Shown here in pieces: positions 11,663 to 61,880 of a stretch of DNA of 64,000 bases. The DNA comes from a virus (taxonomy: Duplodnaviria; Heunggongvirae; Uroviricota; Caudoviricetes), in IMG/VR virus record IMGVR_UViG_3300045988_158394, one strand, 5' to 3'. The notes beneath the pieces are model-generated. The model saw only the letters and a list, made by a program, of their open reading frames with translations. It was not told where the DNA came from and made no database searches. How positions within the stretch are numbered: the first letter of the stretch is position 1; the number at the start of each line of letters is the position of its first letter. The position numbers and the translations under genes were made by a program.

Positions 11663-11679
11663 AATGCTCTAATAAATTT
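11663..11679 (+). promoter_or_regulatory. C1-repressor operator (16/17 match to ATTGCTCTAATAAATTT) ahead of the immI operon
   Basis: AATGCTCTAATAAATTT in the AT-rich intergenic region upstream of c4/icd/ant. Confidence 0.65.
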
Positions 11680-11866
11680 GTATTTTTAAGTCACGAATGC
11701 TATCTTTTCGCATCATATTGACCTTTTAATCGTTCAGGCTTATAGTTCCGCCGTCGTAGCAAATTCTGCGACCGGGTTTAGCAGCCTGAATGATTGTGCG
11801 GACAGCCGCAGATATCCGATATTGCGGTATTTTTGTGTCCGTAAAACCGCGTTACGCCCAAATTAT

Positions 11867-11943
11867 GGTGGGGCGTGATGGGGAGGCTTCGGCCTGCTGG
11901 TTTCACAATCGCCAGTCTGCTAACCCCGTCACGTCCTGCCACC
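11867..11943 (+). ncRNA. c4: c4-type antisense RNA (tRNA-like fold, about 77 nt)
   Basis: GGTGGGGCGTGATGGGG...CCCCGTCACG..CCTGCCACC forms a closed stem; internal CCTGCTGG and TCTGCTAAC are complementary to TAGCAGG and TTTAGCAG just downstream, ahead of icd. Boundaries approximate. Confidence 0.5.
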
Positions 11944-11993
11944 TGTTTAGCAGCGGGTAGCAGGTTGTTAAACCTGATTGTGAGGCCGTAACT

Positions 11994-12215
11994 ATGGTTA
12001 ATGCCAATCCTTGCGCACGCCCAGAATTCATCTGGCGTTTCTATTCCTGTAAAAAACACCACTATCACTTCGTTATCGCAGCAACTGAAGACGAAGCACG
12101 CTCTCAATTGCCTGATGGCCCCTGCATTTTTACTGCCCGTTTTTCAACTAACTCGCGCAATTCACTTAGTTACTGGAGCCTCCCCTTCTCTGCCGACGTT
12201 CAGGGGGTTTTATGA
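11994..12215 (+). CDS. icd: Icd (interference with cell division), 73 aa
   Basis: 73-aa ORF immediately after the c4 region; stop overlaps the ant start (ATGA); same length and position as P1 icd. Confidence 0.7.
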   Translation: MVNANPCARPEFIWRFYSCKKHHYHFVIAATEDEARSQLPDGPCIFTARFSTNSRNSLSYWSLPFSADVQGVL

Positions 12216-13255
12216 AAAAACCTCTCGTCACCCGTAATGACATAGCCGAAGCGATCGCCCTGCATACTGCCTGTATGCCGACACGGGAGATCCCCGGCGC
12301 AATTGCCAACTATTTCATGATAACCAGGCGTTTTTATACCCGAACAGATAAGGCTGTGATCAACAGGCTACTGATAGCCGAGATCAGGGATTATTTGATT
12401 GAACAAGGACGTCTACGTTACGCAACGGTGGCAGCAGAAATGAGAAAGGAGGCACATAGAATGACCAGTAATAATTTGAATGTTAAAAAACCAGCATCTG
12501 TTGCTTCAGCTACGCCATCACCAGCTGTGAATGTTATCTCCAACACTGGAGATACAATCGACAGCCAGACGCTGTTAAAGATGGTTAATGAGGCGCGCAA
12601 GCTATGTGGGGAAAATGAGATCCGCAATAACGATTTTCTCAATAGAATTAAGGATGAACTTGATGGGGAATTTTACGAAACTTTCGTAAAATCCCATGGC
12701 ACAAGGGCCGGGCGCTCTTTTGAGGTCATAACCATGACCTACAAACAAGCCCTGCGAGTCGCCGCGCGCGAGTCAAAAGCGGTCCGCCGTTCGCTGATCG
12801 ACAAACTGGAAGAATTACAGCAGGCAAACTCCCCTACCCCATCGATCCCCCAGACATTACCAGAAGCCCTACGCCTGGCTGCCGAGTTAGCAGAACAGAA
12901 AATGCAGTTGGAACAACAGCTGGTGGCCGCAGCCCCTAAAGTCGATTTTGCCGACCGGGTATCAGTGGCCAATGGAATCCTGATCGGGAACTTTGCAAAG
13001 GTCGTTGGACTTAAGCAAAACGCCCTTTTCTCATGGTTGCGCCAGAATGGCATTCTCATGGCTTTTGGAGCGCGCAAAAACGTACCGCGCCAACAGTACA
13101 TCAACGCCGGGTATTTCACGGTGAAAGAAGTGGTGCTGAATGATGAAAATGGCTACCAGATACGGCTGACGCCCCAATTAACGGGTAAAGGCCAGCAGTG
13201 GTTAACTCGCAAGCTACTTGATGCTGGTTTGTTAAAACCAGTAGCAATAGGTTAA
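12212..13255 (+). CDS. ant1: Antirepressor Ant1, with in-frame internal start giving Ant2 at 12461
   Basis: 347 aa; strong AAGGAGG RBS precedes internal ATG at 12461; C-terminal KilAC-like domain (ILIGNFAKVVGLKQNALF...GKGQQWL). Confidence 0.75.
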   Translation: MKKPLVTRNDIAEAIALHTACMPTREIPGAIANYFMITRRFYTRTDKAVINRLLIAEIRDYLIEQGRLRYATVAAEMRKEAHRMTSNNLNVKKPASVASATPSPAVNVISNTGDTIDSQTLLKMVNEARKLCGENEIRNNDFLNRIKDELDGEFYETFVKSHGTRAGRSFEVITMTYKQALRVAARESKAVRRSLIDKLEELQQANSPTPSIPQTLPEALRLAAELAEQKMQLEQQLVAAAPKVDFADRVSVANGILIGNFAKVVGLKQNALFSWLRQNGILMAFGARKNVPRQQYINAGYFTVKEVVLNDENGYQIRLTPQLTGKGQQWLTRKLLDAGLLKPVAIG

Positions 13256-13332
13256 CAAAAGAAAAAACCTGCCAGCAAACTGGCAGGTTTCTGAGCAGAT
13301 CGTCCAACCCGATCTGGATCGAGTCAGAAAAA

Positions 13333-13349
13333 TTTGCTCTAATAAATTT
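13333..13349 (+). promoter_or_regulatory. C1-repressor operator (16/17) upstream of kilA-repL
   Basis: TTTGCTCTAATAAATTT about 70 bp before the kilA start. Confidence 0.65.
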
Positions 13350-13418
13350 CGTTTTCTAAGTGCAAAGAATCACCATTTCGAGCTGGTGATTGAAGGTTGA
13401 TGCAAATTTGGAGAAAAA

Positions 13419-14219
13419 ATGCAACAAACATTCAATGCGGATATGAATATATCAAACCTTCATCAAAATGTCGATCCTTCAACCACTCTGCCCGTTATTT
13501 GTGGTGTTGAAATTACGACCGACCGCGCTGGCCGTTACAACCTTAATGCTCTACACAGAGCGAGCGGACTCGGTGCCCATAAAGCGCCAGCTCAATGGCT
13601 AAGAACGCTGTCAGCTAAACAGCTCATCGAAGAGCTTGAAAAAGAAACTATGCAGAATTGCATAGTTTCGTTCGAAGGCCGTGGCGGCGGCACTTTTGCC
13701 CATGAATTGCTCGCAGTGGAGTACGCTGGTTGGATTTCTCCCGCGTTTCGGCTGAAGGTAAACCAGACATTTATCGACTATCGAGCCGGAAGATTACAAC
13801 CTGCTATTCCGCAGAGTCTCCCTGAAGCTCTCCGTTTGGCTGCCGACCTGGCAGAGCAAAAGCAACGGCTGGAACAAAAAATGCTTATGGATGCACCTAA
13901 AGTCGAATTCGCCGAACGCGTTGCTACCGCCAGCGGGGTTCTAATCGGCAACTATGCCAAAGTGCTCGGCCTGGGCCAAAACTATCTCTTCACCTGGTTG
14001 CGTGATAACGGAATTCTGATCGCAACCGGTGAACGCAGGAACGTCCCCAAACAAGAATACATATCCCGTGGGTATTTCACCCTTAAAGAAACCGTGATCG
14101 ATACAAGCAATGGAAGCAGGATTTCTTTCACGACTCGTATAACCGGCAAAGGTCAGCAGTGGCTGATGAAGCGATTGCTTGATGCTGGTGTGCTGGTACC
14201 TGTCGCGGCAACGCGCTAA
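13419..14219 (+). CDS. kilA: KilA (KilA-N domain plus KilAC-like C-terminus)
   Basis: 266 aa; N-terminal KilA-N-like segment (YNLNALHRASGLG...AHELLAVEYAGWISPAF); C-terminus paralogous to Ant. Confidence 0.7.
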   Translation: MQQTFNADMNISNLHQNVDPSTTLPVICGVEITTDRAGRYNLNALHRASGLGAHKAPAQWLRTLSAKQLIEELEKETMQNCIVSFEGRGGGTFAHELLAVEYAGWISPAFRLKVNQTFIDYRAGRLQPAIPQSLPEALRLAADLAEQKQRLEQKMLMDAPKVEFAERVATASGVLIGNYAKVLGLGQNYLFTWLRDNGILIATGERRNVPKQEYISRGYFTLKETVIDTSNGSRISFTTRITGKGQQWLMKRLLDAGVLVPVAATR

Positions 14220-14248
14220 CAGACGTAGTAAGAACCACCAGCATTGTA

Positions 14249-15094
14249 ATGCTGGCTAAAGTCACTTTCCTGAGCTGTATAACGATGAGCGATTTTACTT
14301 TTTCTGGCTATGAATTGGCCTGCTTTGTAACACACTCCGGTCTATCCCGTAGCGCCGGGCATATCCTGTCGCAATGTGCAAATCTCGCGGCAACAACCAG
14401 TGAATACTTCATTCACAAGCCTCACCGCCTGATCGCGGCAGAAACTGGTTATAGCCAATCAACCGTCGTTCGTGCATTCCGTGAAGCTGTAAACAAAGGA
14501 ATTCTGTCTGTAGAGATTGTTATCGGCGATCACCATGAACGTCGCGCTAACCTGTACCGGTTTACACCATCCTTTTTGGCCTTCGCACAACAAGCCAAAA
14601 ATGCGCTGATTGAAAGCAAATTAAAGATCTCTTCAGCGGCAACCAAGGTTAAAGCTGTTCTCGCTAAGACATTGGCTTTATTTAATTTTTTATCCACTCC
14701 CCCATGTCAAAATGATACCCCCTCCCCCTGTCAGGATGACGTGGCAATAAAGAATAAGAAGTCACAAGTTAAAAAAACAAAAAGATCAGTTTCCGGCGGT
14801 GCCGGAACGACCAGACTCAAAAAATTGACTTCATGGATCGCTGAGGCAAAAGCAAAGGCTGACAATCTGCGGTTATCCAAAAATCGCGCTCAAAAACATG
14901 AGTTCAAGCAGAAGGTAGAGGCGGCAGCGCGGAAATATGCTTACCTGAAGAACAAGCGTTCTCCTGATATTGGCGGGGTATCAAACTTCGATAATCTGCC
15001 GCATTGCATGACGGTAAACGAAGCTCTTAATGCGGTTTTAGCCAAAAATAAAGATAACGAACAATGGGGTATACCGGCAGGATTCAGAGGGTGA
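14249..15094 (+). CDS. repL: RepL lytic-replicon initiator
   Basis: 281-aa ORF directly after kilA; length and position match P1 repL. Confidence 0.65.
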   Translation: MLAKVTFLSCITMSDFTFSGYELACFVTHSGLSRSAGHILSQCANLAATTSEYFIHKPHRLIAAETGYSQSTVVRAFREAVNKGILSVEIVIGDHHERRANLYRFTPSFLAFAQQAKNALIESKLKISSAATKVKAVLAKTLALFNFLSTPPCQNDTPSPCQDDVAIKNKKSQVKKTKRSVSGGAGTTRLKKLTSWIAEAKAKADNLRLSKNRAQKHEFKQKVEAAARKYAYLKNKRSPDIGGVSNFDNLPHCMTVNEALNAVLAKNKDNEQWGIPAGFRG

Positions 15095-15144
15095 TAGATT
15101 GCTCTAATCTGGAGTCACCTGGCGTTTTCAGTTTGAGGTCGGAG

Positions 15145-15390
15145 ATGCAATCTGATTTTTTACAGTTAGCGATCGCTTTTGCAGGATATGTTTGTATTGG
15201 CTTCTGTGTATACATGATCAGCCGAAAAATGCTTGTCGATATCGACCGCAAAGAACGAGCAGAGGAGATCTTAGTATGGATTTTCTTTGGCGCGGTCTGG
15301 CCATTAGGGATCATGTTTGCTGCAACATTTCTTCTGATGTGGATATTCACCCTTCCAGGTGATTTCTATAGAAAAAAAGCCAGACATTGA
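15145..15390 (+). CDS. Small membrane protein (two predicted TM helices)
   Basis: Start chosen at ATG 15145 after GAGGTCGGAG; the track ORF 15064-15390 has a longer N-terminus. Confidence 0.4.
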   Translation: MQSDFLQLAIAFAGYVCIGFCVYMISRKMLVDIDRKERAEEILVWIFFGAVWPLGIMFAATFLLMWIFTLPGDFYRKKARH

Positions 15391-15464
15391 TACAATCGTT
15401 GCGGGTGCTTGAGGCTATCTGCTTCAGGCATTACCCGAAAAGCAGATAGAAGAAAGCCCCAGAT

Positions 15465-15530
15465 AACATTACGCGTCCTGCAAGACGCTTAACATTAATC
15501 TGAGGCCATATCTATGCTTAGCATACGTAG
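15465..15530 (-). ncRNA. Putative Sok-like antisense RNA (position inferred)
   Basis: Inferred from hok/sok organisation: antisense to the mok-like leader/start region. No promoter verified; boundaries are a guess. Confidence 0.25.
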
Positions 15531-15571
15531 ATTAGCCTCTTACCGACCAAAAGGTCAAGGAGAAGCAGGCT

Positions 15572-15727
15572 ATGAAGCAGCAAAAAGCGATGTTAATCGC
15601 TCTGATCGTCATCTGTTTAACCGTCATTGTGACGGCACTGGTAACGAGGAAAGACCTCTGCGAGGTACGAATCCGAACCGGCCAGACGGAGGTCACTGTC
15701 TTCACAGCCTACGAATCTGAAAGGTAA
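15572..15727 (+). CDS. hok: Hok/Gef-family type I toxin (51 aa)
   Basis: MKQQKAMLIALIVICLTVIVTALVTRKDLCEVRIRTGQTEVTVFTAYESER aligns with Hok; AGGAGA RBS; the overlapping 15514-15720 ORF is the mok-like frame; leader resembles the hok mRNA 5' region. Confidence 0.75.
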   Translation: MKQQKAMLIALIVICLTVIVTALVTRKDLCEVRIRTGQTEVTVFTAYESER

Positions 15728-15806
15728 GAGACCTGGCGGGGAGAGATCCTCGCCACTCTTCGTGTGTCAGGTATCCTCAATGCACCCTTTCCTCTCCAAA
15801 TAAAAA

Positions 15807-15828
15807 AGCTCCCGAAGGAGCTTTAAAA
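15807..15828. terminator. Hairpin terminator between convergent hok locus and structural operon
   Basis: AGCTCC-CGAA-GGAGCT stem with an A-run on the plus strand (T-run for the minus transcript). Confidence 0.55.
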
Positions 15829-15843
15829 TACAAGGGATGACTC

Positions 15844-16353: not shown

Positions 16354-16364
16354 ATAAAATCCTT

Positions 16365-42614: not shown

Positions 42615-42810
42615 AATAATAAATTAATTAGTACATATGCGCCATTTGATATAGCGCACATTAACATCGGGAGAATAATCGTGTCATCCAAGGCTAATTA
42701 TGAATCGCTGGCATCGATCATGCCGCGTAATGAACAGGAAACAGATGCTGTAGTGGACCCTGTAATCGCTGAAATGAATGCTCGCCTGGAGGCTGAATTT
42801 GCAGCTGAGA

Positions 42811-44638: not shown

Positions 44639-45336
44639 AGATTGCTTTAGTTCTTCGCTCTGGTGGTGACTATAACGCTTCCGATGTGCAGTGGCTGGTT
44701 AATCAACTGCCAAAAGGCTATGAAATTATTTGCCTGACAGACCTGAAGCGTTTACATGTACCTGGCGTCAAAGTTGTCCCATTGATCAACCAGTGGCAAA
44801 AGTGCCGTGGCTGGTGGGCGAAAATCGAGTTGTTCCGACCGGATATAACCGATGATCTGTTCTATCTGGATTTGGACACGGTTATTGCCGGTGATATACG
44901 CCCAATCCTTGAGAATCCACCAACCTGCTTCACCATGCTTAGGGATTTTTACCATCCACAATATCGTGGTAGCGGTGCCCTGTGGATACCAAATAGTGTA
45001 AAAGCACATATCTGGAGTTCATTCTGGCAAGATCCGGAAGGTTGGATTGCTCGTTGTGTCACTACTGAGTGCTGGGGTGATCAGGGGTTCTTACGGAAGG
45101 TTATGGGCGATGATACACCAGCATTTCAGGATCTGTATCCAGGATGGTTTGTAAGTTACAAGGCCGATGTTGTGGAACCTGGTTCAAAATATGCGAGCGC
45201 GCGTTACTCCAGGGGGAATGGGGCATTACCAAAGGACTGCCGAATAATCTTTTTCCACGGCAAACCGCGGCCTCGCGAAGTGTCAGAGGATTGGCTTCCC
45301 CTCATTAGCTCGTTTTTTGAGCGAGAATCAGAATAA
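44635..45336 (+). CDS. Putative glycosyltransferase (DxD motif)
   Basis: 233 aa with [12 protein letters not shown] resembling GT-A fold DxD glycosyltransferases. Confidence 0.4.
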
Positions 45337-45337
45337 T

Positions 45338-45404
45338 ATTGCTCTAATAATTCCATATTTTTAAAACGTGATGTACACTCATCACGTTTTTTATTAGAGC
45401 AATC
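45338..45404. promoter_or_regulatory. Paired inverted C1-operator-like sites flanking a perfect 11-bp hairpin
   Basis: ATTGCTCTAATAATTCC (plus) and GATTGCTCTAATAAAAAA (minus) bracket AAAACGTGATG-TACACT-CATCACGTTTT. Confidence 0.6.
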
Positions 45405-46973: not shown

Positions 46974-47480
46974 TTGAGTATTTTCAATAAACACGCACAC
47001 CAGGAACGTCCGTATATCGTCATAGTCGATATTGATGGGACGATATCAGAGGCAACGGAAGACAGGCTGCATTTGCTTCCACCACCTGGCAAAGGTGCAT
47101 TAACAGAGCACTGGAACGAGTTTAACCTTGCCTGTGACACTGATGCTCCCATCACTCCAGTTATTGATATGGTGCGCCAGTTATTTAACGTTTACACGGT
47201 CTGGTTTGTAACCGGGCGCTGTGAGATAGCCAGGGATAAAACACGAGCCTGGTTGCGTAAGCACGTAACAAACGGGGCTGAGCCTTTGCTATCTATGCGT
47301 CCTGCCACCGATGACAGAAATGACGGCCCAGCAAAGATTGCTCTCCTTAAGAAAATTGGTCTAAGTAAAATCGCGTTCGCGCTGGAAGATAAGATTGAAG
47401 TGGCGCGTGTTTTCAGGAGTCACGGCGTACTTACGTTAATGGTCAGGGAGTATGAAAACGCGCTTCTCCATCAACAGTAA
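46974..47480 (+). CDS. HAD-family phosphatase (DxDGT motif)
   Basis: TTG start after GAGGAGGG; IVIVDIDGTIS HAD motif I. Confidence 0.55.
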   Translation: MSIFNKHAHQERPYIVIVDIDGTISEATEDRLHLLPPPGKGALTEHWNEFNLACDTDAPITPVIDMVRQLFNVYTVWFVTGRCEIARDKTRAWLRKHVTNGAEPLLSMRPATDDRNDGPAKIALLKKIGLSKIAFALEDKIEVARVFRSHGVLTLMVREYENALLHQQ

Positions 47481-47496
47481 TTGCTCTAATAAATCT
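47480..47496 (+). promoter_or_regulatory. C1-repressor operator (16/17) abutting the phosphatase stop
   Basis: ATTGCTCTAATAAATCT begins at the last base of the stop codon. Confidence 0.6.
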
Positions 47497-47674: not shown

Positions 47675-48400
47675 ATGAAAGGCGAAGTGAAAGAGCGCGG
47701 CATGATTTTCAACGATGAGATGGTCCGAGCCATCCTCGAAGGAAGGAAAACGCAGACGCGGCGGATAATGAAAAATCAGCCTGCGGAAGTTGGTCCAGAA
47801 GCACCAGTGATGGTTAGGGAAATTGGTGCAGGTTTTCAGTGGTACGGGGCTGATGGTGTAAGCAGTGTTTTCAATTGCCCCTTTGGTATCGTCGGCGATC
47901 GAATTTGGGTTCGTGAAACATGGGCGATATTAGGCAATGAAGATGGTTGCAGTGTGGACTGGAACGACAACCTTTGTCGTGGCGATGAGAAGAACGCAGC
48001 AAGGATTTATCGGGCCAGTTGTGAGCAAAAGCCTGGTGATTACGGTTTATGGTCGATACCCGATGATGCCGACTGGAAACCTCACACTGTGAATGAAAAG
48101 TTTGATGGTGGGTGGCGTCCATCAATTCACATGCCGCGATGGGCATCACGCATCCTGTTGGAAATTACCAACGTGCGCGTTGAGCGGTTGAACAATATCA
48201 GCGAATGCGATGCAAGGGATGAGGGCGTTCCGCCTGCTGGAAGTTTGCTTCCTGATCACCCGGGAACATTCCTTACTCCCAAGGGGGATTTCGCAATGGC
48301 CAAGGTTGCGTTCCAGCGCCTGTGGGAATCCATCTATGGTGAAGAAAGCTGGAACGCTAATCCCTGGGTGTGGGTAATCGAGTTTGAGCGTATTCAGTAG
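47675..48400 (+). CDS. Conserved phage protein (possibly ASCH-like fold)
   Basis: 241 aa; AAGGGGG RBS; motifs MIFNDEMVRAILEGRKTQTRR, IWVRETW, HMPRWASR. Confidence 0.5.
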   Translation: MKGEVKERGMIFNDEMVRAILEGRKTQTRRIMKNQPAEVGPEAPVMVREIGAGFQWYGADGVSSVFNCPFGIVGDRIWVRETWAILGNEDGCSVDWNDNLCRGDEKNAARIYRASCEQKPGDYGLWSIPDDADWKPHTVNEKFDGGWRPSIHMPRWASRILLEITNVRVERLNNISECDARDEGVPPAGSLLPDHPGTFLTPKGDFAMAKVAFQRLWESIYGEESWNANPWVWVIEFERIQ

Positions 48401-48409
48401 GGCGAGCGT

Positions 48410-48631
48410 ATGCAATCTGTTATTTGTGAGGAAGTCGGCCTGAATAAAGCATCCCCAGCAGAGTTAAGAGCAAGTCTCGAAATGGCGCATAGCCTTGCTC
48501 AAATTGGTGTCAGGTTTGTACCAATTCCAGTTGAAACAGATGAAGAATTTCACAGGTTAGCGGCATCGGCAGCACAAAAGCTGGAAATCATGGCAGCGAA
48601 AGTAGAGAAAGCTGAAGGAGCGACAAAATGA
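48410..48631 (+). CDS. Hypothetical protein
   Basis: 73-aa ORF in a tightly packed plus-strand array. Confidence 0.4.
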   Translation: MQSVICEEVGLNKASPAELRASLEMAHSLAQIGVRFVPIPVETDEEFHRLAASAAQKLEIMAAKVEKAEGATK

Positions 48632-48843
48632 GCAAGCCAACCGACGAAGAAATAGTTCGGGTGTTGGAAGAACACGGGCGCTGTATGACTTACGTCGTGA
48701 CCAACTGGCTTAGGGATAAATATCGCACACTCAAAACGGCATACGTTTTGCGTCGTCTAAAGAAACTGGAGTTCGACGGGAAAGTAAAGCGCGTTAACAG
48801 TTCTTATATAAGACAAATTTGCTGGGAGGCATCCAGTGAGTAA
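48628..48843 (+). CDS. Hypothetical protein
   Basis: 71-aa ORF, start overlaps the previous stop. Confidence 0.4.
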   Translation: MSKPTDEEIVRVLEEHGRCMTYVVTNWLRDKYRTLKTAYVLRRLKKLEFDGKVKRVNSSYIRQICWEASSE

Positions 48844-49480
48844 CCGTTTTTACATGATGTGCTTGCGTGAAACTGTGGGTAATAACGCCTCATTCCATTG
48901 CCATAACGGCAATGGTTACAGTTCTGATATCGATCGCGCTCATGTTTACACGCTGGAAGAAGCCCAAAAAGCCTGGAATTGTGGGCGAGATATCGATCAG
49001 CCTGTTTGTGCCGATAGTGTGGATGCAATGGCTGTGTGGCACGTTGATTGCCAGTACATCCCTACAGAAAGCCCGATTGAGTCAGATTGCACTGCGTATG
49101 TGGCCTACAAAAAAGGTAGCTGGAACGGCAACGATGTTTACTGGCTTCAACACGGTGGATTGCCAACAGATGACTTCAGTAAAGCGACCATCTTTAGCGT
49201 CGCCAACAAAAACGAACCAGGAATAGTTTGGTTGCCATTTTCCATTGCTGATGCAGCAAAGCGCCGGACGTTCAATATCAATAACTTTAACCGCAGAACA
49301 ATGGTTCAGGGCGCAGGTTTGGTCATGCCTGACTGGTTGAAAGAGCAGAACAGAAGAAAGAAGTCGCGAAGCGGGAAGGTGCGTTGGAATTGTCCGCATT
49401 GCGGAAAAATAACCTGGCAGTACAGCCCATATGATTTTGAAGGCTGTAGTGATTACAACTGTGAAGGATGGCGAGAATGA
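48836..49480 (+). CDS. Hypothetical protein with C-terminal Cys cluster
   Basis: 214 aa; CPHCGK...CSDYNCEGW at the C-terminus. Confidence 0.45.
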   Translation: MSNRFYMMCLRETVGNNASFHCHNGNGYSSDIDRAHVYTLEEAQKAWNCGRDIDQPVCADSVDAMAVWHVDCQYIPTESPIESDCTAYVAYKKGSWNGNDVYWLQHGGLPTDDFSKATIFSVANKNEPGIVWLPFSIADAAKRRTFNINNFNRRTMVQGAGLVMPDWLKEQNRRKKSRSGKVRWNCPHCGKITWQYSPYDFEGCSDYNCEGWRE

Positions 49481-50157
49481 CAATTGACTATCAGGTACTG
49501 CGTGAGGCGGCAGAAAAGGCAACACCAGACGAATGGGTCGCATTTATTTCGACGGATACTGGTACTTATGCGGTGCACACGCCCGGTGATGAACGATGTG
49601 AAGACGTTATCAAATGGACCGGCTTTGATGGACAGAAAAATGCAGAGAACAACGCTCGTTATGTTGCCGCGTTCAACCCAAAGGTTGCACTGGAGCTGCT
49701 TGGTGAAATTAAGCGCCTGGAGGACACAAATATTGATGCTATGTGCCGAATTGCAGAGCTTGAGACTAATCTCGCGGCGCTGGTGGCGGAGAATGCGGGG
49801 CTTAAGGCCTTCAAAACCGCCGTTTATCAGCAGATGGGCGTCGGATGTGATGCTCCTGAATTCTCCATTACGGTAGGTTTGAGTAACTTACGTCGTTTTG
49901 CTGACACACTCCACGCCATTGAGCGTGAGTTCTTTACCAAAGAGCTACCTGATGAAGAGCACGAAGGCGAAACATTCAATGAATGTCCACTTAGCTGGGG
50001 AATGAGCGTCGAACAGTACGTTTCCGAGTTTCGCAAATGCCTGGCTGAAGTACGGGCGCAGGGCGTGGAGATGTTTGCGGAGTGTGCATACACACTTGAA
50101 CATCATGATCACGCAGTAGCCTTCGCCGCTGAGCTTCGCAAAGGAGGCAACCAGTGA
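49468..50157 (+). CDS. Ead/Ea22-like protein, copy 1
   Basis: N-terminus MTIDYQVLREAAEKATPDEW typical of lambdoid Ea22-like proteins. Confidence 0.5.
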   Translation: MARMTIDYQVLREAAEKATPDEWVAFISTDTGTYAVHTPGDERCEDVIKWTGFDGQKNAENNARYVAAFNPKVALELLGEIKRLEDTNIDAMCRIAELETNLAALVAENAGLKAFKTAVYQQMGVGCDAPEFSITVGLSNLRRFADTLHAIEREFFTKELPDEEHEGETFNECPLSWGMSVEQYVSEFRKCLAEVRAQGVEMFAECAYTLEHHDHAVAFAAELRKGGNQ

Positions 50158-50648
50158 GCGAAATTAATTACCAGGCACTGCGTGAGGTGGCGGAACGTGC
50201 AATTCCAGCAATGGAACGCCTGTTAATGTTGCCAGCTGATGATGACTTGTTAAGTGAACAGGAACTTAAAGATTACGGTGTGGATATTGATGCGCTCAAC
50301 GCCTTCAAATTTCTGGCCGGACCAGAAACCGTGCTGGCACTACTTGATGAACGGGAAGCAGACAAAAAGCGCATTGCAGAACTGGAAGATCGGGAAATAA
50401 AACCAGCCAAAGGTGAAGTTCTTGTCGTTGTTTCTGGTTTTACTGGTTGCGGAAAAAGCGCCATTGCCGGGGAAATAGAAATCGCGATGAAGGCTATTGG
50501 TGTACCGGTTCAGTGGACTAATGGCGATGCGGAAAAGCGCATGACAGGAGCTGACTGGCTGACAGCGATTGAGATGTACAAACCAACAGTGCGCATCGTG
50601 GAAGTTAATGTGCCACGCGCCGCAGGCATTCGCATCAAAGGAGAGTGA
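50154..50648 (+). CDS. Ead/Ea22-like protein, copy 2
   Basis: N-terminus MSEINYQALREVAERA paralogous to the preceding gene. Confidence 0.5.
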   Translation: MSEINYQALREVAERAIPAMERLLMLPADDDLLSEQELKDYGVDIDALNAFKFLAGPETVLALLDEREADKKRIAELEDREIKPAKGEVLVVVSGFTGCGKSAIAGEIEIAMKAIGVPVQWTNGDAEKRMTGADWLTAIEMYKPTVRIVEVNVPRAAGIRIKGE

Positions 50649-50649
50649 T

Positions 50650-50847
50650 ATGGACAAAAACACACCTGCTTACTGGAGTTTATCACTTGATACTGAATGC
50701 CCAAAATGCGGCCACAATTTCGATCTGCTTTGCGATGCTGATTTCTGGGAATTTTCTGGAGCAAAACAGGCATGTGAAGAAATAAAAGATTACGAAACAT
50801 GCTGCCCAGAATGTAACCATGAATTTAAAACAGATTTTGTGTATTGA
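50650..50847 (+). CDS. Small Cys-rich protein
   Basis: Start at ATG 50650; two CxxC pairs (CPKCGH...CCPECNH). Confidence 0.4.
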   Translation: MDKNTPAYWSLSLDTECPKCGHNFDLLCDADFWEFSGAKQACEEIKDYETCCPECNHEFKTDFVY

Positions 50848-50857
50848 GGCATAACGA

Positions 50858-52129
50858 ATGACCACTTTTACTAAAGAACAATTAATAGAGATAATTAAGC
50901 GCAATATAACGGTTATGGATCGTTATCCTGATTTAGTAACTGCACAAATGGATCTGGAAGTATACAAAATCGCGCTGGCATCACTGGAAGCAGAACCAGT
51001 TGCTTATATTTTCAAACATCCGGCCGGGAAATTATTCTGGGCTTTAACGGATGAAAGCAATAAAGAGCAACCGGACGTTATTCCTGTTTATGCCGCCCCT
51101 CCAGTGCCAGTAGTACCTGAAGAAAAACCAATGCCTAACGCTCTAAGCATGCTTGAAAGAGAGATCACACAACTGATTGGTGATGCGCAGGAAGCCACTG
51201 TTACTGGCTATGAGTTAATCGCTGAAGCTTGGCGTTTGATGGATGGACAAGACCCTAAAACCAGCGATTGGCATAGCAAGGCTTCGAAGTATTTAAATTC
51301 CAATATTGTAGAAAAAGTTGATGATGACCGTATTGAGGCTGTTAAGGCTGTTTTGCGTAGACTGGCTGGCAACTCTCCGGTAATTCCAGGTGAGGTGCTG
51401 TCAGCAATTATGAAGGTTGCCAGGGTTCGTGCCGATTTCGATGATTTTGACGGTGACAGGCGAGGTATCGGTGATTGTCTGGATGAGGCTGAGCAAGAGC
51501 TTATCGTTACCATTAACAAATATGCCAGTCAGTTGGCAGCAGAACCGATAGCGACTAATGACGTTCGAGAGCAGCAGACAGCCGTTCCGCCAGTTCCTGT
51601 AATACAGGCTGATGTCGCGCAAGCAATTGAAAATCTCAGGCAGAAGTTAGTGGAATGCAATCGCTATAACTACTGCGCAGATGCAGTTAAGGGCGTAGAG
51701 GATGCCTGCCACGCTGCCATGCTTCAGGGTATCCAACCTGTAAGCCAAACTTACAAGTTTCCAGTTAATACACCTTGCCAGGATGCGCCAGCCCATATCT
51801 GGCTGCAAACAGCTGGAGTATGGCCAGAAGATGGCGAGTTAAGCGAATTAACGTGGTGCAGCCACAATCAGCACCATGATGACACGCTATATGTTCGAGC
51901 TGACTTGGTAAATGGCAATTCTCCGGTAACTCCGGATGGTTGGATAAGCTGTAGTGAGCGAATGCCCGCTCAAGATGATTGGATTTTAATTTATTCAAAG
52001 CACAGTGAGTATATGGCAGGACAGGTGCAAGGGGAATACGTGGAGTTGAGCGACGGCACTTTATCGTGGTTAGGGAACGCCTTGTTCTGGATGCTGCTAC
52101 CAGAACCTCCCCAGGAGGCAGGTCAATGA
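50858..52129 (+). CDS. DUF551-like C-terminal domain protein
   Basis: 423 aa; C-terminus WISCSERMPAQDDWILIY resembles the lambdoid DUF551 domain. Confidence 0.45.
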   Translation: MTTFTKEQLIEIIKRNITVMDRYPDLVTAQMDLEVYKIALASLEAEPVAYIFKHPAGKLFWALTDESNKEQPDVIPVYAAPPVPVVPEEKPMPNALSMLEREITQLIGDAQEATVTGYELIAEAWRLMDGQDPKTSDWHSKASKYLNSNIVEKVDDDRIEAVKAVLRRLAGNSPVIPGEVLSAIMKVARVRADFDDFDGDRRGIGDCLDEAEQELIVTINKYASQLAAEPIATNDVREQQTAVPPVPVIQADVAQAIENLRQKLVECNRYNYCADAVKGVEDACHAAMLQGIQPVSQTYKFPVNTPCQDAPAHIWLQTAGVWPEDGELSELTWCSHNQHHDDTLYVRADLVNGNSPVTPDGWISCSERMPAQDDWILIYSKHSEYMAGQVQGEYVELSDGTLSWLGNALFWMLLPEPPQEAGQ

Positions 52130-52622
52130 GCTGGCCTGAAGCATTCGCAACGGTAGGAATTGTGATGGCGGCAGCACTGGGTTTGTATTCAATTTGTCGC
52201 TGGTGGTAACGATGGGAAAAATAACTTTTGTAGTCGATTTGAGGATGGTAAAGAGCCACCTGTTAGCGCCAATCTTGATGTTGCTGGTGGAAGGCTTGTT
52301 TCGGTTCTATTTGGTGACAACCGAGATGACTTCTTCCAACCAGAAGAAGTTGATGTAGTGCGAGAGGCATTAAACGAGTTAAGTGTTGACAACGATGATG
52401 CTCATGCGGAAATCATCCAAAAAATGGAACTGCTAACTCACTAAATTATCAATTATGGTGCTATCACCTACGACACCGAGAGAAAATTTATAATGTCAAA
52501 AGTAAATGTTTTGATTTTTTCAGCAATTGTTGGCTTTGGTTTTACTGCCGGAGTGCAGATTTATATTACGTGGGAAAAAATCATCAACTACGCATGGAGT
52601 TGTTTTATTAAGTGAGGTAAGT

Positions 52623-52916
52623 ATGTGGAGAGGTAATAGTCATGGCAAAAGCCAGATGATACTTACCGAATATCAGCTCGACCACAAAACCAATAAATCA
52701 CGTTCAGTATATTTGCTTCGCCACAATAGCCGCGTAAGGAATACCGTACTGGAGCAAAATCTGACCGTTGAAATGGATAATTACGGGGGCTTCAAGCCAA
52801 CAATATCGCTTGATGATTTTCCTCGTGGTTTAAGCGAAAGAGAAGCAATGCTGAAATTAGCAGAATGGCTACAAAGATTAAGCATTGCTATTGAAGATAA
52901 CTGGTCTGAACCTTAA
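52623..52916 (+). CDS. Hypothetical protein
   Basis: Start at ATG 52623 after GAGG; the longer track ORF starts at 52527. Confidence 0.4.
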   Translation: MWRGNSHGKSQMILTEYQLDHKTNKSRSVYLLRHNSRVRNTVLEQNLTVEMDNYGGFKPTISLDDFPRGLSEREAMLKLAEWLQRLSIAIEDNWSEP

Positions 52917-52922
52917 ATTAAT

Positions 52923-53297
52923 ATGATGACACTAAAACATTTTCTTGACCGCCCATTATGGGCGGCAGCCGCAGGCTATGACTTTAATTATATGGATTGC
53001 ATGTCTTATACTGCCAATGCATACGACCATTCGTTCAGCCTGCTGTTTAATTCTTTAAGAATATTGCCGGAAACAGAAGTTGGAGAGCTTCATTTATGGA
53101 TATTGGGCTTTATCGCGGCTGTCGTTGGTATTGCTGTATGGCCTTTTATTTTCTGGCTGGTGGCTGTTGTAGTGTGGTTTAAGTGCAAGACATACCGGAG
53201 AAAGTATTTCTTAGGTGATGGAATGACTGATATTGCCAAAATGAACATTGAAAAATGGACTAAGGAATGTGAAAAGAAATGGCGCAAAAAGAAATGA
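52923..53297 (+). CDS. Membrane protein
   Basis: 124 aa with a hydrophobic segment (LWILGFIAAVVGIAVWPFIFWLVAVVVWF). Confidence 0.45.
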   Translation: MMTLKHFLDRPLWAAAAGYDFNYMDCMSYTANAYDHSFSLLFNSLRILPETEVGELHLWILGFIAAVVGIAVWPFIFWLVAVVVWFKCKTYRRKYFLGDGMTDIAKMNIEKWTKECEKKWRKKK

Positions 53298-54211
53298 CCA
53301 GAATCACTGAAGAGCGTATATCAGAGACTATTTCCCGTATCGAAATGTATGGTCACGGTGCTGGATATACGGCAGATGAAGTATTGGCACTTGCCCAAAT
53401 GGCTTTGGCGGCTTGCAAAGATGATAAAAAAATGAAGCTTATCGACTTGTTAGTGAAGGAGCTGTCTAAGTGCGGCGGGTGGCCTGATGGAATGAGTTAT
53501 TGTTACCTACCCAGTGTCAATTTAATGGCACCATGCGCGACTTTTGCTTTTGGCTCAGACCACAAAAAAGACACTTTCTTTGGGCGCAATTTTTGTTGTG
53601 AGATTGAGCTTCCAATTGGTGACCTTGATAGCGATGAATACCAGTCAGTTGTCACTCGCGAACAATACGAATCAGCTCTCATAGCGTCGCAGAAAGTCGA
53701 GTTCAATGGTGATGAACTTGAAAGTAAGACTTACAGGTTGGATTTTGGGCAATGGCTGGAACAGCAACGCGGGAAAATCGATGTGGACTGTGGTTGTGTG
53801 TCCACTGAAACATTCATGCACTGGCTGCGGGTAGCTTACGAGGCTGGCAACTATCCGGACATTCCGGATAGTTCGGTGCCAGCGAAAGGAAAGGGCGTCC
53901 CCGGTGAACGTATCCGAATTAAGCCGCATGTTTATCGCGAACTGGTTAACCGCCTCCACGATACAGCGGTCAAGTGTGCTGGCACCCAGCAATTACGAGA
54001 AAGAATTAGCCGTGTTTTGGGCGACGTTATTACGCCAGATCATCATAAACAAGCCGAGAAAAGTGACCTAGAAAGGTGTCACCTTGAGGCGGCATTAAAC
54101 ATTAAGCCGGGGCATACGCTTGGCATTATCGATGCTCTGTTGGTTCATAAGATGGCCATGGCTTTATTGCCGTTGGTGGATGCTGGCGATACAAGCGAGG
54201 GTGAAGTATGA
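53279..54211 (+). CDS. Hypothetical protein
   Basis: 310-aa ORF, coupled to neighbours. Confidence 0.45.
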   Translation: MAQKEMTRITEERISETISRIEMYGHGAGYTADEVLALAQMALAACKDDKKMKLIDLLVKELSKCGGWPDGMSYCYLPSVNLMAPCATFAFGSDHKKDTFFGRNFCCEIELPIGDLDSDEYQSVVTREQYESALIASQKVEFNGDELESKTYRLDFGQWLEQQRGKIDVDCGCVSTETFMHWLRVAYEAGNYPDIPDSSVPAKGKGVPGERIRIKPHVYRELVNRLHDTAVKCAGTQQLRERISRVLGDVITPDHHKQAEKSDLERCHLEAALNIKPGHTLGIIDALLVHKMAMALLPLVDAGDTSEGEV

Positions 54212-56627: not shown

Positions 56628-56667
56628 GCTGCAAAGTGCTGGTGCTTTATGCCTGTGAAGTTTATAA

Positions 56668-56692: not shown

Positions 56693-56699
56693 GGTGTTT

Positions 56700-57485: not shown

Positions 57486-57512
57486 AGCCCAATCAGTGAT
57501 GAAAGGTGTGAT

Positions 57513-58556
57513 GTGAAAGCCGTAATTACTCCCTTTGTACAAAAAGAGCTTGGCGTCGCCACATTCAAAGTGGATCAGGAAGTCAGAAAGCTGGTGGAGG
57601 CTGGCCGTAAATTTATTATGGAGCCGGTGCCGCGTGAGTTAATCGAGCACATGGACGACGGCCTCGTTGTTTCCGAGCAAACTATGGCAACAAATGAGGC
57701 GTTGCAGCCGTTTTTTAACAGCGATGAACTGTTTCGCCGTATTGGTGGAATTGACGCGCTGGTGGCGTGGTTGCGTAGGAAAGAGGGTCAATGCCAGGCC
57801 GCAGATCGTAGTTGGTGTGACAACCATATTGTCCACGCTGAACGAGACAATAGCGCGGTGTTGTTGTGCTGGCATCACGATAACCATTACCGGATGCGTG
57901 GTTTTAATGAGCTGAAAGAAACGCTGCATAATAATCGCGTTAACTGGATACTGGATGTCGCCCGTCAGGAAATGGGGCTTTCAGATGGCCATGATTTAAG
58001 TATTCAGGAACTGTGCTGGTGGGCTTTCATGCGCAACATGATGCACCTGATGCCGGAAGAAGTTTGCCGTATATCAATAAATAAGATGAAAGCCGCAACG
58101 CAGGATAGCGGACCTCTGAAAGAGGCGGATATTCGCCCGTATGACGATCGCGCTACAGCATATGTTCAGATGATGGAAGAACGCGCCGCGCCGATGCGTG
58201 CAAAAGTATGCTCTGTGGATGTTGACTCCGACCCTGGCATGGCGCATTTCAAAATACCAAAACTGCAATCGCTAAAATTACCTGAGTACATGGACTTTGT
58301 TGCTTCCCGTCCATGCTGTGGGTGTGGAGCGGCGGGAGCTGGCGCTCACATTACGCCTTATATCGTTCGTCATAGTCGATTATGCGCGCATGACATTTAC
58401 GCAATTCCTCTGTGCCAGTCATGCCAGCGTGATATTGAGCGTGACCGCGATAATTGGGAGAAGACGCACGGTAGGCTGGCGATGCATCAACGATTGTTCT
58501 TTGATTACGCGCTTGGAGTCGGCGCTATCACAAGTCACTCGTCGAGTGTTAGATAA
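57513..58556 (+). CDS. Hypothetical protein (P1 pdcB position)
   Basis: 347 aa; Cys-rich C-terminus ([12 protein letters not shown]...[12 protein letters not shown]). Confidence 0.5.
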
Positions 58557-58557
58557 A

Positions 58558-58574
58558 ATTGCTCTAATGTATTG
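58558..58574 (+). promoter_or_regulatory. C1-operator-like site (14/17) upstream of lpa
   Basis: ATTGCTCTAATGTATTG immediately after the upstream stop, about 70 bp before lpa. Confidence 0.5.
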
Positions 58575-58644
58575 CTATTTCTTTAATCGATGGTATTATA
58601 TTCCACGTTGATTAGTTGACATGGGCTAATCAGTAGGTGACAGG

Positions 58645-59097: not shown

Positions 59098-59182
59098 TTG
59101 ATTGCTTGCCCGTTCCGGGCCTTTTGACATGTGACTTTCGTTACCCTCGCGTCAAAAAGAGTTTTTACGAAAGGAAGCATAA

Positions 59183-60376
59183 GTGACCTGGGACGATCAC
59201 AAAAAGAATTTTGCTCGCCTGGCGCGAGATGGTGGTTACACCATCGCACAGTATGCCGCCGAGTTTAATCTTAACCCTAATACCGCACGTCGTTATCTCC
59301 GTGCCTTCAAAGAAGACACCAGGACTGCGGACAGCCGCAAGCCAAATAAGCCAGTCAGGAAGCCACTAAAAAGCATGATCATTGATCACTCTAATGATCA
59401 ACATGCAGGTGATCATATTGCGGCTGAAATAGCGGAAAAACAGAGAGTTAATGCCGTTGTCAGTGCCGCAGTCGAGAATGCGAAGCGCCAAAATAAGCGC
59501 ATAAATGATCGTTCAGATGATCATGACGTGATCACCCGCGCCCACCGGACCTTACGTGATCGCCTGGAACGCGACACCCTGGATGATGATGGTGAACGCT
59601 TTGAATTCGAAGCTGGCGATTACCTGATAGATAACGTTGAAGCGCGGAAGGCCGCGCGCGCTATGTTGCGTCGGTCCGGGGCCGATGTTCTGGAAACCAC
59701 TCTTCTTGAAAAGTCTCTTTCTCATCTCCTTATGCTGGAGAACGCCAGGGATACGTGTATTCGCCTGGTGCAGGAAATGCGCGATCAGCAAAAGGACGAT
59801 GATGAAGGTACTCCGCCTGAATACCGTATCGCGAGCATGCTAAACAGCTGTTCCGCGCAGATAAGCAGCCTGATCAACACCATTTACAGCATCCGGAATA
59901 ACTATCGAAAAGAAAGCCGGGAGGCGGAAAAGCACGCTTTGTCTATGGGGCAAGCTGGCATTGTTAAGCTGGCATACGAACGAAAGCGTGAAAATAACTG
60001 GTCAGTGCTGGAAGCAGCTGAATTCATCGAGGCGCATGGCGGGAAAGTGCCGCCCCTGATGCTGGAGCAAATCAAAGCCGATCTGCGTGCTCCGAAGACC
60101 AATACCGATGATGAGGAAAGGCAAACAGCCGTCGGTGGCCCTTCTCTTGAAGATCTGGACAAAGTTGCGCGAGAACGGGCCGCCAACCGCCGCGCCGATG
60201 CCGCATTGTGGATTGAGCAGCGTAGGGAAGAAATCGCCGATATCGTTGATACAGGCGGTTATGGAGATGTTGATACTGAAGGTGTATCAAACGACCCATG
60301 GCTGGAACAAGACCTGGACGAAGACGAGGAGGAAGACGAAGAAGTTACCCGCAAGCTATACGGGGATGATGATTAA
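59183..60376 (+). CDS. pacA: Terminase small subunit PacA (contains pac site)
   Basis: 397 aa; GTG start after AAGGAAG; the GATC-rich pac site lies inside the 5' part; acidic C-terminus. Confidence 0.8.
59374..59536. other. pac packaging site (Dam-methylatable hexanucleotide clusters)
   Basis: Four TGATCA/G-type elements at 59375-59416 and three at 59505-59534, about 162 bp in all, as described for P1 pac. Confidence 0.8.
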
Positions 60377-61860
60377 TGGCCAGAAGTTGCGTAACGGATC
60401 CACGTTGGCGCGAGCTGGTGGCGCTATATCGTTATGACTGGATTGCTGCCGCTGATGTTTTGTTCGGCAAAACACCTACCTGGCAGCAGGATCTGATTAT
60501 TGAGTCTGTGCAGGAACAGGGTAGCAAGACATCTGTTTCGTCTGGTCACGGTACCGGGAAATCAGACATGACTTCTATCATGATCATGTTGTTCATAATC
60601 ATGTATCCCGGTGCCCGCGCCATTATCGTTGCGAACAAAATTCAGCAGGTAATGACCGGTATATTCAAGTACATCAAGATAAACTGGGCTACTGCCACCA
60701 GCCGTTTCCCATGGCTTGCTGATTATTTTGTTCTGACAGAAACCGCTTTCTATGAGGTTACTGGTAAAGGTGTATGGACTGTAGTACCGAAGGGCTTTCG
60801 TCTGGGAAGTGAAGAAGCTCTCGCCGGTGAACACGCAGATCATCTTCTGTATATTATCGATGAAGCCTCCGGTGTCAGTGATAGAGCTTTCGGTATCATC
60901 ACCGGTGCTCTTACCGGACAGGATAACCGCATCTTATTGCTGTCACAGCCTACACGCCCAAGCGGCTATTTCTACGATACTCACCATAAACTGGCCAAGC
61001 GTCCTGGTAACCCTGATGGCGTTTATACGGCGATCACGCTTAACAGTGAGGAATCACCGCTGGTAACGCCAGCATTTATCAAAATGAAGCTGGCGGAGTA
61101 CGGCGGTCGCGATAACCCTATGTACATGATTAAGGTACGCGGCCTATTCCCTAAATCACAGGATGGCTTCCTTCTTGGACGTGATGAGGTTGAACGTGCA
61201 ACGCGGCGGAAAGTCAAGATTGCAAAAGGATGGGGCTGGCTTGCATGTGTGGACGTTGCTGGTGGTACGGGACGGGATAAGTCCGTTATCAATATCATGA
61301 TGGTGTCCGGCCAGAGAAATAAACGCCGTGTAATCAACTATCGAATGCTGGAATACACAGACGTTACAGAAACGCAGCTTGCCGCCAAAATTTTCGCAGA
61401 ATGTAATCCTGAGCGATTCCCAAATATTACCATAGCGATAGACGGCGATGGCCTGGGTAAAGCAACGGCGGATCTGATGTACGAGTATTATGGTATTACC
61501 GTACAGCGTATACGCTGGGGTAAAAAGATGCATAGCCGTGAAGATAAGAGCCTGTACTTTGATAAACGTGCTTATGCCAACGTTCAAGCCGCAGAGGCCG
61601 TAAAATCTGGTCGTATGAGACTGGATAAGGGTAATGAAACTATTGAGGAAGCGTCGAAAATCCCTGTAGGGATTAACTCCGCAGGTCAATGGAAGGTGAT
61701 GAGTAAGGAGGATATGAAGAAAAAACTCAACCTGCACTCACCAGACCATTGGGATACATATTGTTTCGCTATGCTGGCGGATTATGTTCCCCAGGACGAA
61801 GTGCTTAGCGTCGAAGACGAAGCGCAGGTTGATGAAGCTCTGGCATGGCTTAATGAATGA
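60376..61860 (+). CDS. pacB: Terminase large subunit PacB
   Basis: 494 aa; Walker-A-like SSGHGTGKS, Walker-B-like [10 protein letters not shown]; start overlaps the pacA stop. Confidence 0.8.
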
Positions 61861-61863
61861 ATA

Positions 61864-61880
61864 TTTGCTCTAATAAATTG
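61864..61880 (+). promoter_or_regulatory. C1-repressor operator (15/17) heading the second immI-like module
   Basis: TTTGCTCTAATAAATTG, 4 bp after the pacB stop. Confidence 0.6.

Follow-up and report, generated by a model that had tools for sequence, protein, structure and literature searches.

C1 operators of a P1-like phage-plasmid, with a probable additional operator at a second immI-like module

Introduction

The viral DNA analysed here (IMG/VR record IMGVR_UViG_3300045988_158394; 64,000 nucleotides, hereafter the window) carries repeated copies of a 17-nt motif resembling the operator of the P1 repressor C1. An earlier note, made from the sequence alone, listed ten copies and counted at least eleven. 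It proposed that they define a C1 regulon, that two of them are fused to stop codons, and that a second immunity module is also under C1 control. Hence, two questions arise. Are these motifs C1 operators, and does the regulon extend to the second module? In P1, C1 binds each operator and blocks the sigma-70 promoter that it overlaps. The literature gives 22 operators for P1, together with a C1 consensus (PMC8546580).

Results

Kinship of the window to P1

Alignment of the window with positions 36430–93648 of P1, at ~95–98% identity over the aligned blocks, identifies its source as a P1-like phage-plasmid (genus Punavirus), of which it spans the segment from the tail fibre to c1. The regulon lies only partly inside this segment, as the immC operators, like the larger part of c1, are located past the window end. 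The 138 C-terminal amino acids of C1 encoded in the window match P1 C1 at 136 positions (99%). The N-terminal, DNA-binding part of C1 is located beyond the window end. In pHNTH9F11-2, the closest full record, C1 is identical to P1 C1.100 at 282 of 283 residues.

Operator motifs

The consensus ATTGCTCTAATAAATTT, with at most three mismatches, occurs 11 times in the window, compared to 0.42 times expected from 100 dinucleotide-preserving shuffles (mean 0.42, maximum 2). Likewise, a weight matrix derived from 16 annotated P1 operators yielded 11 sites of at least 16 bits, where 200 shuffles gave 0.165 on average. The eleven sites score 19.7–28.8 bits, and the annotated P1 operators 16.5–28.8 bits. 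Shuffled sequence had been proposed in the earlier note as a check on its reading, and the enrichment holds under both scores. The motif is present at all ten coordinates listed there, and the eleventh copy, counted but unlisted, is the minus-strand site at 31821–31837 (Table 1).

Comparison with mapped P1 operators, also proposed in the note, gave a similar answer. Ten of the eleven sites correspond to C1 protein_bind features of the P1 GenBank record AF234172 (Op51, Op53, Op68, Op72ab, Op82, Op86ab, Op88, Op94), with which they share position, strand and sequence. This orthology, together with the 'phage repressor C1' annotation of AF234172, supports the reading of the motifs as C1 operators. 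Across these ten sites there were 0 changes in 164 nt relative to P1, compared to ~28 changes in ~1000 nt of their 60-nt flanks on each side. The bivalent Op72 and the paired Op86 are shared with P1 as well. Furthermore, the P1 annotation places a -35 or -10 element inside or against each operator, and the flanks in the window are nearly identical to those of P1. We conclude that the eleven sites are very probably C1 operators. That they are AT-rich 17-mers arisen by chance, with no regulatory role, can practically be dismissed, since only the weakest matrix matches (35835, 47355) occur at chance frequency, whereas the eleven strong sites outnumber every shuffle and ten of them occupy mapped P1 operator positions, free of substitutions despite diverged flanks.

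Three weaker matrix matches of 8–12 bits were found, at 35835 (-), 42621 (-) and 47355 (+), where ~4.5 matches of at least 8 bits are expected by chance. We dropped 35835, at the ban/dbn junction, and 47355 as extra operators, because matches that strong arise at chance rate.

Table 1. Positions of operators, RNAs and genes in the window. Mismatches are counted against the consensus. Where an operator has two names, the second is the newer one used in AF234172.
Feature	Position	Strand	Mismatches	Description
Op51 / Oc4	11663..11679	+	1	immI operon (c4-icd-ant) operator; AATGCTCTAATAAATTT; P1 48140-48156; identical to P1
First C4 antisense RNA	11861..11946	+		resident P1-type immI; Rfam RF01695, 69.6 bits
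Op53 / OrepL	13333..13349	+	1	covers -10 of PkilA (kilA-repL, lytic replication)
Op55 / Orlf, truncated	15098..15108	+		first 11 nt left (ATTGCTCTAAT); <8 bits
Op68 / Odmt	28288..28304	+	1	adjoins -35 of Pdmt (uhr-hrdC-dmt)
Op72a / Obana	31810..31826	+	0	perfect consensus match; dmt stop codon inside
Op72b / Obanb	31821..31837	-	2	inverted partner, 6 bp overlap with Op72a; pair forms the bivalent ban operator
Op82 / O26	41714..41730	-	2	between divergent gene 26 and pmgL promoters
Op83 / Oppp, degenerate orthologue	42621..42637	-		TATGTACTAATTAATTT; 11.9 bits
Op86a / OpmgRa	45338..45354	+	3	1 nt past pmgQ stop codon; overlaps -35 of PpmgR
Op86b / OpmgRb	45387..45403	-	3	convergent partner of Op86a, 49 bp downstream
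Op88 / OpmgT	47480..47496	+	1	first base is last base of pap stop codon
Op94 / Olpa	58558..58574	+	3	operator of late-promoter activator gene lpa; 1 nt past pdcB stop codon
Extra operator	61864..61880	+	2	TTTGCTCTAATAAATTG, 22.1 bits; Op51 paralogue; 3 nt past pacB stop codon
Putative P51a-like promoter	61878..61906	+		-35 TTGTGT 61878-61883, 17-nt spacer, -10 TACATT 61901-61906
IsrK-type leader RNA	61955..62033	+		Rfam RF01394, 58.2 bits
Second C4 antisense RNA	62078..62165	+		Rfam RF01695, 75 bits vs gathering score 45, full model
icd-like gene	62220..62441	+		81% amino-acid identity to P1 Icd
Second antirepressor gene (ant)	62438..63550	+		370 aa, 57% identical to P1 Ant1; ORF6N + ANT/KilAC domains
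c1, 3' part	63583..64000	-		gene continues past window end

The window differs from P1 in three operators. A module swap has cut Op55 short: a hok/sok module (sok RNA at 15403–15577) replaces the sequence 3' of the remaining part. Op83 carries two substitutions relative to P1, one of them at C5, a position that is invariant among P1 operators. Finally, the site at 61864 comes in addition to the P1 set. The degenerate Op83 at 42621 and the truncated Op55 at 15098 were, like the 31821 (-) half of Op72, not listed in the earlier note.

Operators at stop codons

Both stop-codon overlaps described in the earlier note are real. The dmt gene ends in ...SILL*, and its TAA (31817–31819) forms positions 8–10 of the operator at 31810. 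Similarly, pap ends in ...HQQ*, and the last A of its TAA (47478–47480) is position 1 of the operator at 47480. The note had called pap a HAD phosphatase, a fair label given that a HAD_PNKP phosphatase domain was found. The two overlaps (dmt/Op72a and pap/Op88) are shared with P1 and readable from its annotation too. More generally, six plus-strand operators begin inside the stop codon of the upstream gene or 0–3 nt from it. The genome is tightly packed and each C1-controlled promoter begins right behind the gene before it, which explains why operators contact stop codons. Moreover, the operator sequence includes TAATAA, an in-frame tandem stop in one reading frame.

Bound repressors can block an elongating polymerase. 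Given the proximity of these six operators to stop codons, it might be argued that they serve mainly as roadblocks against read-through from upstream, rather than as blocks of initiation. However, the -35 and -10 elements annotated in P1 in or against each operator suffice for repression, and no observation requires a roadblock. We consider a mainly roadblock function very unlikely; both roles may coexist.

A second immI-like module between pacB and c1

Compared to P1, the window has ~1.7 kb (61859–63583) inserted between pacB and c1, without counterpart in P1 or P7. By its content and part order, the insertion is an immI copy that has diverged. The second immunity module of the earlier note is indeed present and comprises an operator, a leader of the IsrK type, a C4 RNA and the genes icd and ant; the C1 control attributed to it is argued from sequence.

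The operator at 61864 has no positional orthologue in P1 or P7, as the site falls within sequence that P1 lacks. It departs from the consensus in its first and last bases (positions 1 and 17), both of which recur in mapped operators (T1 in Op53, G17 in Op94). Its last 3 nt are shared with the -35 of the putative P51a-like promoter, as at Op51/P2c4. This promoter was placed by homology, using the alignment of the Op51 region and the P1 annotation. A simple promoter scan gave no call at 61878..61906, where the -35 matches at 3 of 6 positions. A further promoter candidate (TTGCGC, 18-nt spacer, TATGCT) ends 7 nt upstream of the IsrK-like RNA start. According to a terminator scan, the leader contains an intrinsic terminator, with a stem at 62012–62028 followed by a T run. 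Further downstream, the end of icd (62441) overlaps the start of ant (62438). Two other ORFs are probably not genes: a 68-aa ORF at 61857–62063, which has no Pfam match and overlaps the IsrK-type RNA, and an 'ash family protein' ORF annotated across the C4 RNA in relatives.

The leader contains an a1 site TTGAGAC (61981–61987) and a b1 site GCAAAAGG (61998–62005), both predicted to be unpaired in the fold. One loop of the second C4, CCTTTTGC, is complementary to GCAAAAGG at both 61998 and 62201; the other, GTCTCAA, is complementary to TTGAGAC at both 61981 and 62170. The b2 site (62201–62208) overlaps the icd ribosome-binding site. In contrast, the recognition loops of the resident immI C4, whose c4-a1b1 region is found at 11740–11792 (Rfam), are CACAATC and CTGCTAA. 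The recognition loops of each C4 fit the upstream and downstream sites of its own module and match none of the target sites in the other module.

Spread and conservation of the second module

A 431-nt query that runs from the pacB end through the operator and leader to C4 is matched over 80% or more of its length in at least 216 plasmid records, and the 64-nt operator-promoter stretch is covered in 270 plasmid records. From these matches, many natural P1-like plasmids carry the predicted second antirepressor cassette.

The operator core TGCTCTAAT is retained in 8 of 9 divergent copies, and with it the TACATT -10 across pacB-c1 copies, while the 5–10 nt directly upstream vary freely. Core and -10 are also retained at two primary immI loci (L003, L004), where the leader-to-C4 stretch is 88–90% identical. 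A leader copy in a non-P1 context (L005), on the other hand, lacks the operator site, which fits retention of the operator only alongside a P1-type C1. This pattern argues against the alternative that the operator at 61864 is a passenger relic, brought in with the cassette from another P1-like immI locus and now without effect, and that a constitutive promoter, together with the terminator and C4, fully sets expression of the module. A relic would be consistent with the weak -35 proposed here, with the P1 annotation, where the promoter controlled by Op51 is one of two feeding immI, and with a C5-to-T substitution in the module-2 operator of one relative (L011) at the otherwise invariant position 5. 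The latter implies that selection on this operator is not absolute. On balance, we consider a relic unlikely, and C1 control at 61864 is likely to be functional.

Discussion

Our results describe an ordinary P1 regulon with one modest addition, the operator of the second module. The set of ten orthologous operators is textbook P1 biology and no discovery; it amounts to the mapped C1 regulon, preserved whole in a wild relative, and little is at stake in it. By extension from P1, C1 in the lysogen would keep off lytic replication by kilA-repL (Op53), the dmt operon (Op68) and the ban helicase operon (bivalent Op72ab), as well as the morphogenesis units (Op82, Op86ab, Op88) and the late-gene activator lpa (Op94). 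Through Op51, it would also silence one promoter of the two that drive the immI antirepressor operon.

For the second module, we infer C1 binding, promoter activity and the action of Ant-2 on C1, which Ant-2 would inactivate. By homology, the site at 61864 would be an Op51-type operator of a paralogous immI cassette, where C1 represses a P51a-like promoter. The other candidate promoter may stay active, like P51b in P1. Hence, by analogy with Op51, C1 control in the second module probably extends to one promoter only, not to both. Transcripts would either end at the IsrK-type terminator or continue through C4 and icd to ant. The second C4, with both loops on a2 and b2 at the icd ribosome-binding site, would then keep Ant-2 off. 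As the two C4 specificities do not overlap, the phage would possess two independently locked antirepressors.

The part order of the second module is that of the immI region of P1 and P7 (Op51, P51a/P51b, c4, icd, ant1/ant2). In both, an operator over the -35 is followed by an a1/b1 leader, C4, a2/b2 at the icd ribosome-binding site, icd, and an ant gene that overlaps the icd end. The two differ in location, since immI adjoins sim whereas the second module lies between pacB and c1. They also differ in the IsrK-type leader with its own terminator and in the ORF6N middle domain of Ant-2. The IsrK-orf45-anrP locus of the Salmonella Gifsy-1 prophage (PMC4825925) likewise has, upstream of an antirepressor gene, an RNA of the IsrK family whose intrinsic terminator is leaky. 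In contrast to that locus, the unit in the window resides in a P1-type plasmid prophage, behind a putative C1 operator, and has a recognizable C4 RNA downstream of the leader and ahead of the coding genes.

The P1-like plasmids pTZ20_1P and RCS47 carry this insertion too, likewise between pacB and c1 (Venturini et al., 2019; PMC6906374). The passages of that paper on antirepressor, pacB and immunity give an account of two short hypothetical ORFs plus ant, without C4 or IsrK-type RNA, and the word 'operator' is absent from its text. A one-sentence mention in it is the only description of a second immI that we found in the literature.

Possibly, the second cassette is a working part of the switch and not redundant, although we regard this as doubtful. 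A drop in C1 would then yield an excess of IsrK-type RNA, which titrates the second C4 and frees Ant-2. The short IsrK-type RNA would share its exposed a/b sites with the ant mRNA, and release of Ant-2 would create a positive-feedback loop. If so, two C4 RNAs that do not cross-react could provide resistance to induction by relatives with either cassette type, while the phage itself could induce lysogens that hold one cassette type only.

The addition to the regulon matters mainly through its spread. Many P1-like plasmids would tie a second antirepressor cassette, with another antisense specificity, into the same repressor circuit, and the plasmids with this cassette often bear resistance genes. 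This bears on coexistence and mutual induction among P1-like elements, and on plasmid stability. It also offers a testable setting in which the IsrK RNA family is linked with the C4/ant paradigm.

Finally, an operator lies at, or at most ~5 nt from, each of three mosaic junctions. These are the breakpoint in Op55, the left boundary of the pacB-c1 insertion, and the point where homology to the immI loci of L003 and L004 begins. It is a possibility that operators also serve as joints for cassette exchange.

C1 operators of the window

Eleven sites in the window match ATTGCTCTAATAAATTT, the consensus of the asymmetric 17-bp operator of the P1 repressor C1, with at most three mismatches, compared to a mean of 0.42 and a maximum of 2 in dinucleotide-preserving shuffles. 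At a threshold of 16 bits, a weight matrix derived from sixteen annotated P1 operators recovered the same set of eleven, against a mean of 0.165 across 200 shuffles. Chance frequency, which the earlier note had named as a refuting outcome, is thus excluded, and all ten of the coordinates listed there were correct. The additional site (31821-31837, minus strand) shares six bases with the site at 31810-31826. Three extra matrix matches at 8–12 bits were no more frequent than in the 200 shuffles.

In line with their interpretation as C1 operators, ten of these sites coincide with C1 protein_bind features of the P1 record AF234172 (Table). Their 164 non-overlapping bases contain no changes relative to P1, while the flanks (60 bases on each side) contain ~28 differences in ~1000 bases. 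Had the operators diverged as their flanks did, they should hold four to five changes; all ten thus appear to be under constraint. In P1, C1 blocks the sigma-70 promoters that overlap its asymmetric operators; its binding is strengthened by Lxc, and it is antagonised by Coi and Ant (PMC8546580; P1 annotation). The mechanism at these ten orthologous sites is most probably the same. Since the whole P1 genome has 22 operators (PMC8546580, which also restates the consensus), the window holds roughly half of the regulon; the immC operator cluster lies outside it.

Two P1 operators are not intact. Op83 carries two substitutions relative to P1, one of them at the otherwise invariant C5, and scores 11.9 bits. 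Op55 is reduced to its first eleven bases, ATTGCTCTAAT (15098-15108), because a hok/sok-type toxin-antitoxin module (15109-15801; sok RNA at 15403-15577, Rfam, 114.9 bits) has taken the place of rlfA, rlfB and some of the P1 segment behind them, with the breakpoint between operator positions 11 and 12.

Operators, parts of the second module, stretches foreign to P1 and stop codons preceding operators
Feature	Position	Strand	Remarks
Op51 / Oc4	11663	+	P1 annotation
Op53 / OrepL	13333	+	P1 annotation
Op68 / Odmt	28288	+	P1 annotation
Op72a and Op72b / Obanab	31810 and 31821	+ and -	P1 annotation
Op82 / O26	41714	-	P1 annotation
Op86a and Op86b / OpmgRab	45338 and 45387	+ and -	P1 annotation
Op88 / OpmgT	47480	+	P1 annotation
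Op94 / Olpa	58558	+	P1 annotation
Operator TTTGCTCTAATAAATTG	61864	+	
IsrK-family RNA	61955-62033		with intrinsic terminator
C4 antisense RNA	62078-62165		full length; 75 bits
icd homologue			81% identity with Icd of P1
Antirepressor, 370 residues			57% identical to P1 Ant1; ORF6N + ANT/KilAC domains
Non-P1 stretch	5267-5874		~600 bp within sit (tail ruler / transglycosylase) gene; no blastn-level alignment to P1
Non-P1 stretch	15109-15801		replaced/inserted relative to P1 (alignment to AF234172)
Non-P1 stretch	23706-25964		plasmid replication/incompatibility segment (P1: incA iterons, repA); no alignment to P1
Non-P1 stretch	48370-53835		5.5-kb insertion within pmgT operon, downstream of Op88
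Non-P1 stretch	61859-63583		between pacB and c1
pmgQ stop, Op86a	45334-45338	+	stop ends one base before operator
pdcB stop, Op94	58554-58558	+	stop ends one base before operator
pacB stop, 61864 site	61858-61864	+	stop ends three bases before operator
repL stop, Op55 remnant	15092-15098	+	directly abutting

Relation to P1

Megablast identified the window as phage P1 and relatives (genus Punavirus), and direct alignment gave blocks collinear with AF234172 36430-93648 at 95–98% identity, broken by four replaced or inserted stretches and a fifth between pacB and c1. The insertion downstream of Op88, which codes for two Ead/Ea22-like proteins, one DUF551 protein and several others without family match, would be under C1 control via this operator if co-transcribed. 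The 3' part of c1 occupies the last 418 bases (minus strand), and 136 of its 138 residues are identical to P1 C1; in the closest full record, pHNTH9F11-2, C1 is identical to P1 C1.100 at 282 of 283 residues. As to the non-P1 replication segment, we note that the full plasmid closest to the window has the type IncHI1B rather than IncY. Three tRNA genes lie in the ban operon region (32495-32645 and 34120-34192; Rfam tRNA), as in P1.

A second immunity module

For P1, ten of the C1 sites are already on record, as are the two stop-codon overlaps of the earlier note. Judged from sequence, the single addition is an Op51-type operator that would link to the C1 circuit an antirepressor cassette that is accessory but widespread and differs in specificity. 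Venturini et al. mention the insertion, for RCS47 among others, as ant with two short hypothetical ORFs, and their text does not contain the word 'operator' (PMC6906374). We found no description of the 61864 operator, the second C4 or the IsrK-type leader in this setting, which is weak evidence because most of the older P1 literature lay outside the search.

The operator lies five bases into the pacB-c1 insertion, which is absent from P1 and P7. The earlier note spoke of a second immunity module, and this insertion holds one, with operator, IsrK-type leader, C4, icd and ant homologues. The stretch after the operator can be aligned to the Op51/P51a part of immI, the P1 antirepressor operon (c4-icd-ant), with the -10 TACATT conserved. 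The loops of the second C4, CCTTTTGC and GTCTCAA, match their own leader twice: at an upstream pair within the IsrK-type RNA, both sites being unpaired in the predicted fold, and at a downstream pair, of which GCAAAAGG overlaps the ribosome-binding site of icd. CACAATC and CTGCTAA are the loops that the resident C4, of P1 type, uses for its own a and b sites, and in a complementarity search the recognition loops of neither C4 fitted the target sites of the other module. The full set of parts and the module's own C4 targets indicate a complete immI paralogue of different specificity.

An IsrK-type leader also occurs at the primary immI locus of two P1-like plasmids (CP099272.1 and NZ_CP058684.1; ~1500-1860), where the operator is preceded by genes other than sim. 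Their a1 site is TTGGAAC, versus TTGAGAC in the second module. This suggests a third class of C4 specificity.

Coverage of at least 80% was found in 308 plasmid records for a 1.76-kb query, in 216 for a 431-base query (pacB end, operator, leader, C4) and in 270 for a 64-base query (pacB end, operator, promoter); the phages JL22, RCS47 and vB_EcoM-673R5 also carry the module. In an alignment of nine pacB-c1 copies and two primary immI loci sharing the leader type, the operator core TGCTCTAAT was invariant except for one C-to-T change in one plasmid, while the bases from the pacB stop to the operator vary freely and operator positions 1-2 also vary. Homology to these two immI loci (CP099272.1 and NZ_CP058684.1) starts at base 61865, the operator's second base. 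Beside the one leader copy in a non-P1 context, no C1-type site was found.

We infer that C1 would repress the P51a-like promoter, and that a second, putative promoter (TTGCGC, spacer of 18 nt, TATGCT) would remain active. Most transcripts would stop at the leader terminator and some would read through, as has been shown for Gifsy-1 IsrK (PMC4825925), with icd/ant translation blocked by the second C4. Speculatively, the short leader RNA might titrate this C4 via its a1/b1 sites. For Gifsy-1, a processed RNA of ~80 nt, orf45-prime, is reported just downstream of IsrK (PMC4825925). Judging from where it lies and how long it is, it could belong to the C4 type, in which case IsrK trans-activation would be recast as titration of C4.

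Operators at stop codons

The earlier note had described two operators fused to stop codons, and both overlaps are present. The dmt gene ends in SILL, with its TAA at positions 8-10 of Op72a, and pap ends in HQQ, with the last A of its TAA as position 1 of Op88. The P1 annotation has the same overlaps (dmt end 68676 within Obana, 68667-68683; pap end 84293 at the OpmgT start). The pattern is broader than these two, as four further plus-strand operators start 0-3 nt past an upstream stop (Table). Throughout the window, operator starts are ends of transcription units. The simplest reading is tight packing, where a C1-controlled promoter starts where the preceding gene ends; nothing requires a special coupling mechanism. 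The operator consensus includes TAATAA, two stops in tandem in one of the frames, and the preceding gene can take its stop codon from the operator.

In plasmid pE2865-1 (NZ_AP018809.1, 1555-1577), a 4-nt deletion takes out the pacB TGA. The frame continues GAA TAT TTG CTC TAA, stopping at the TAA in the operator of the second module, the same arrangement as dmt and Op72a.
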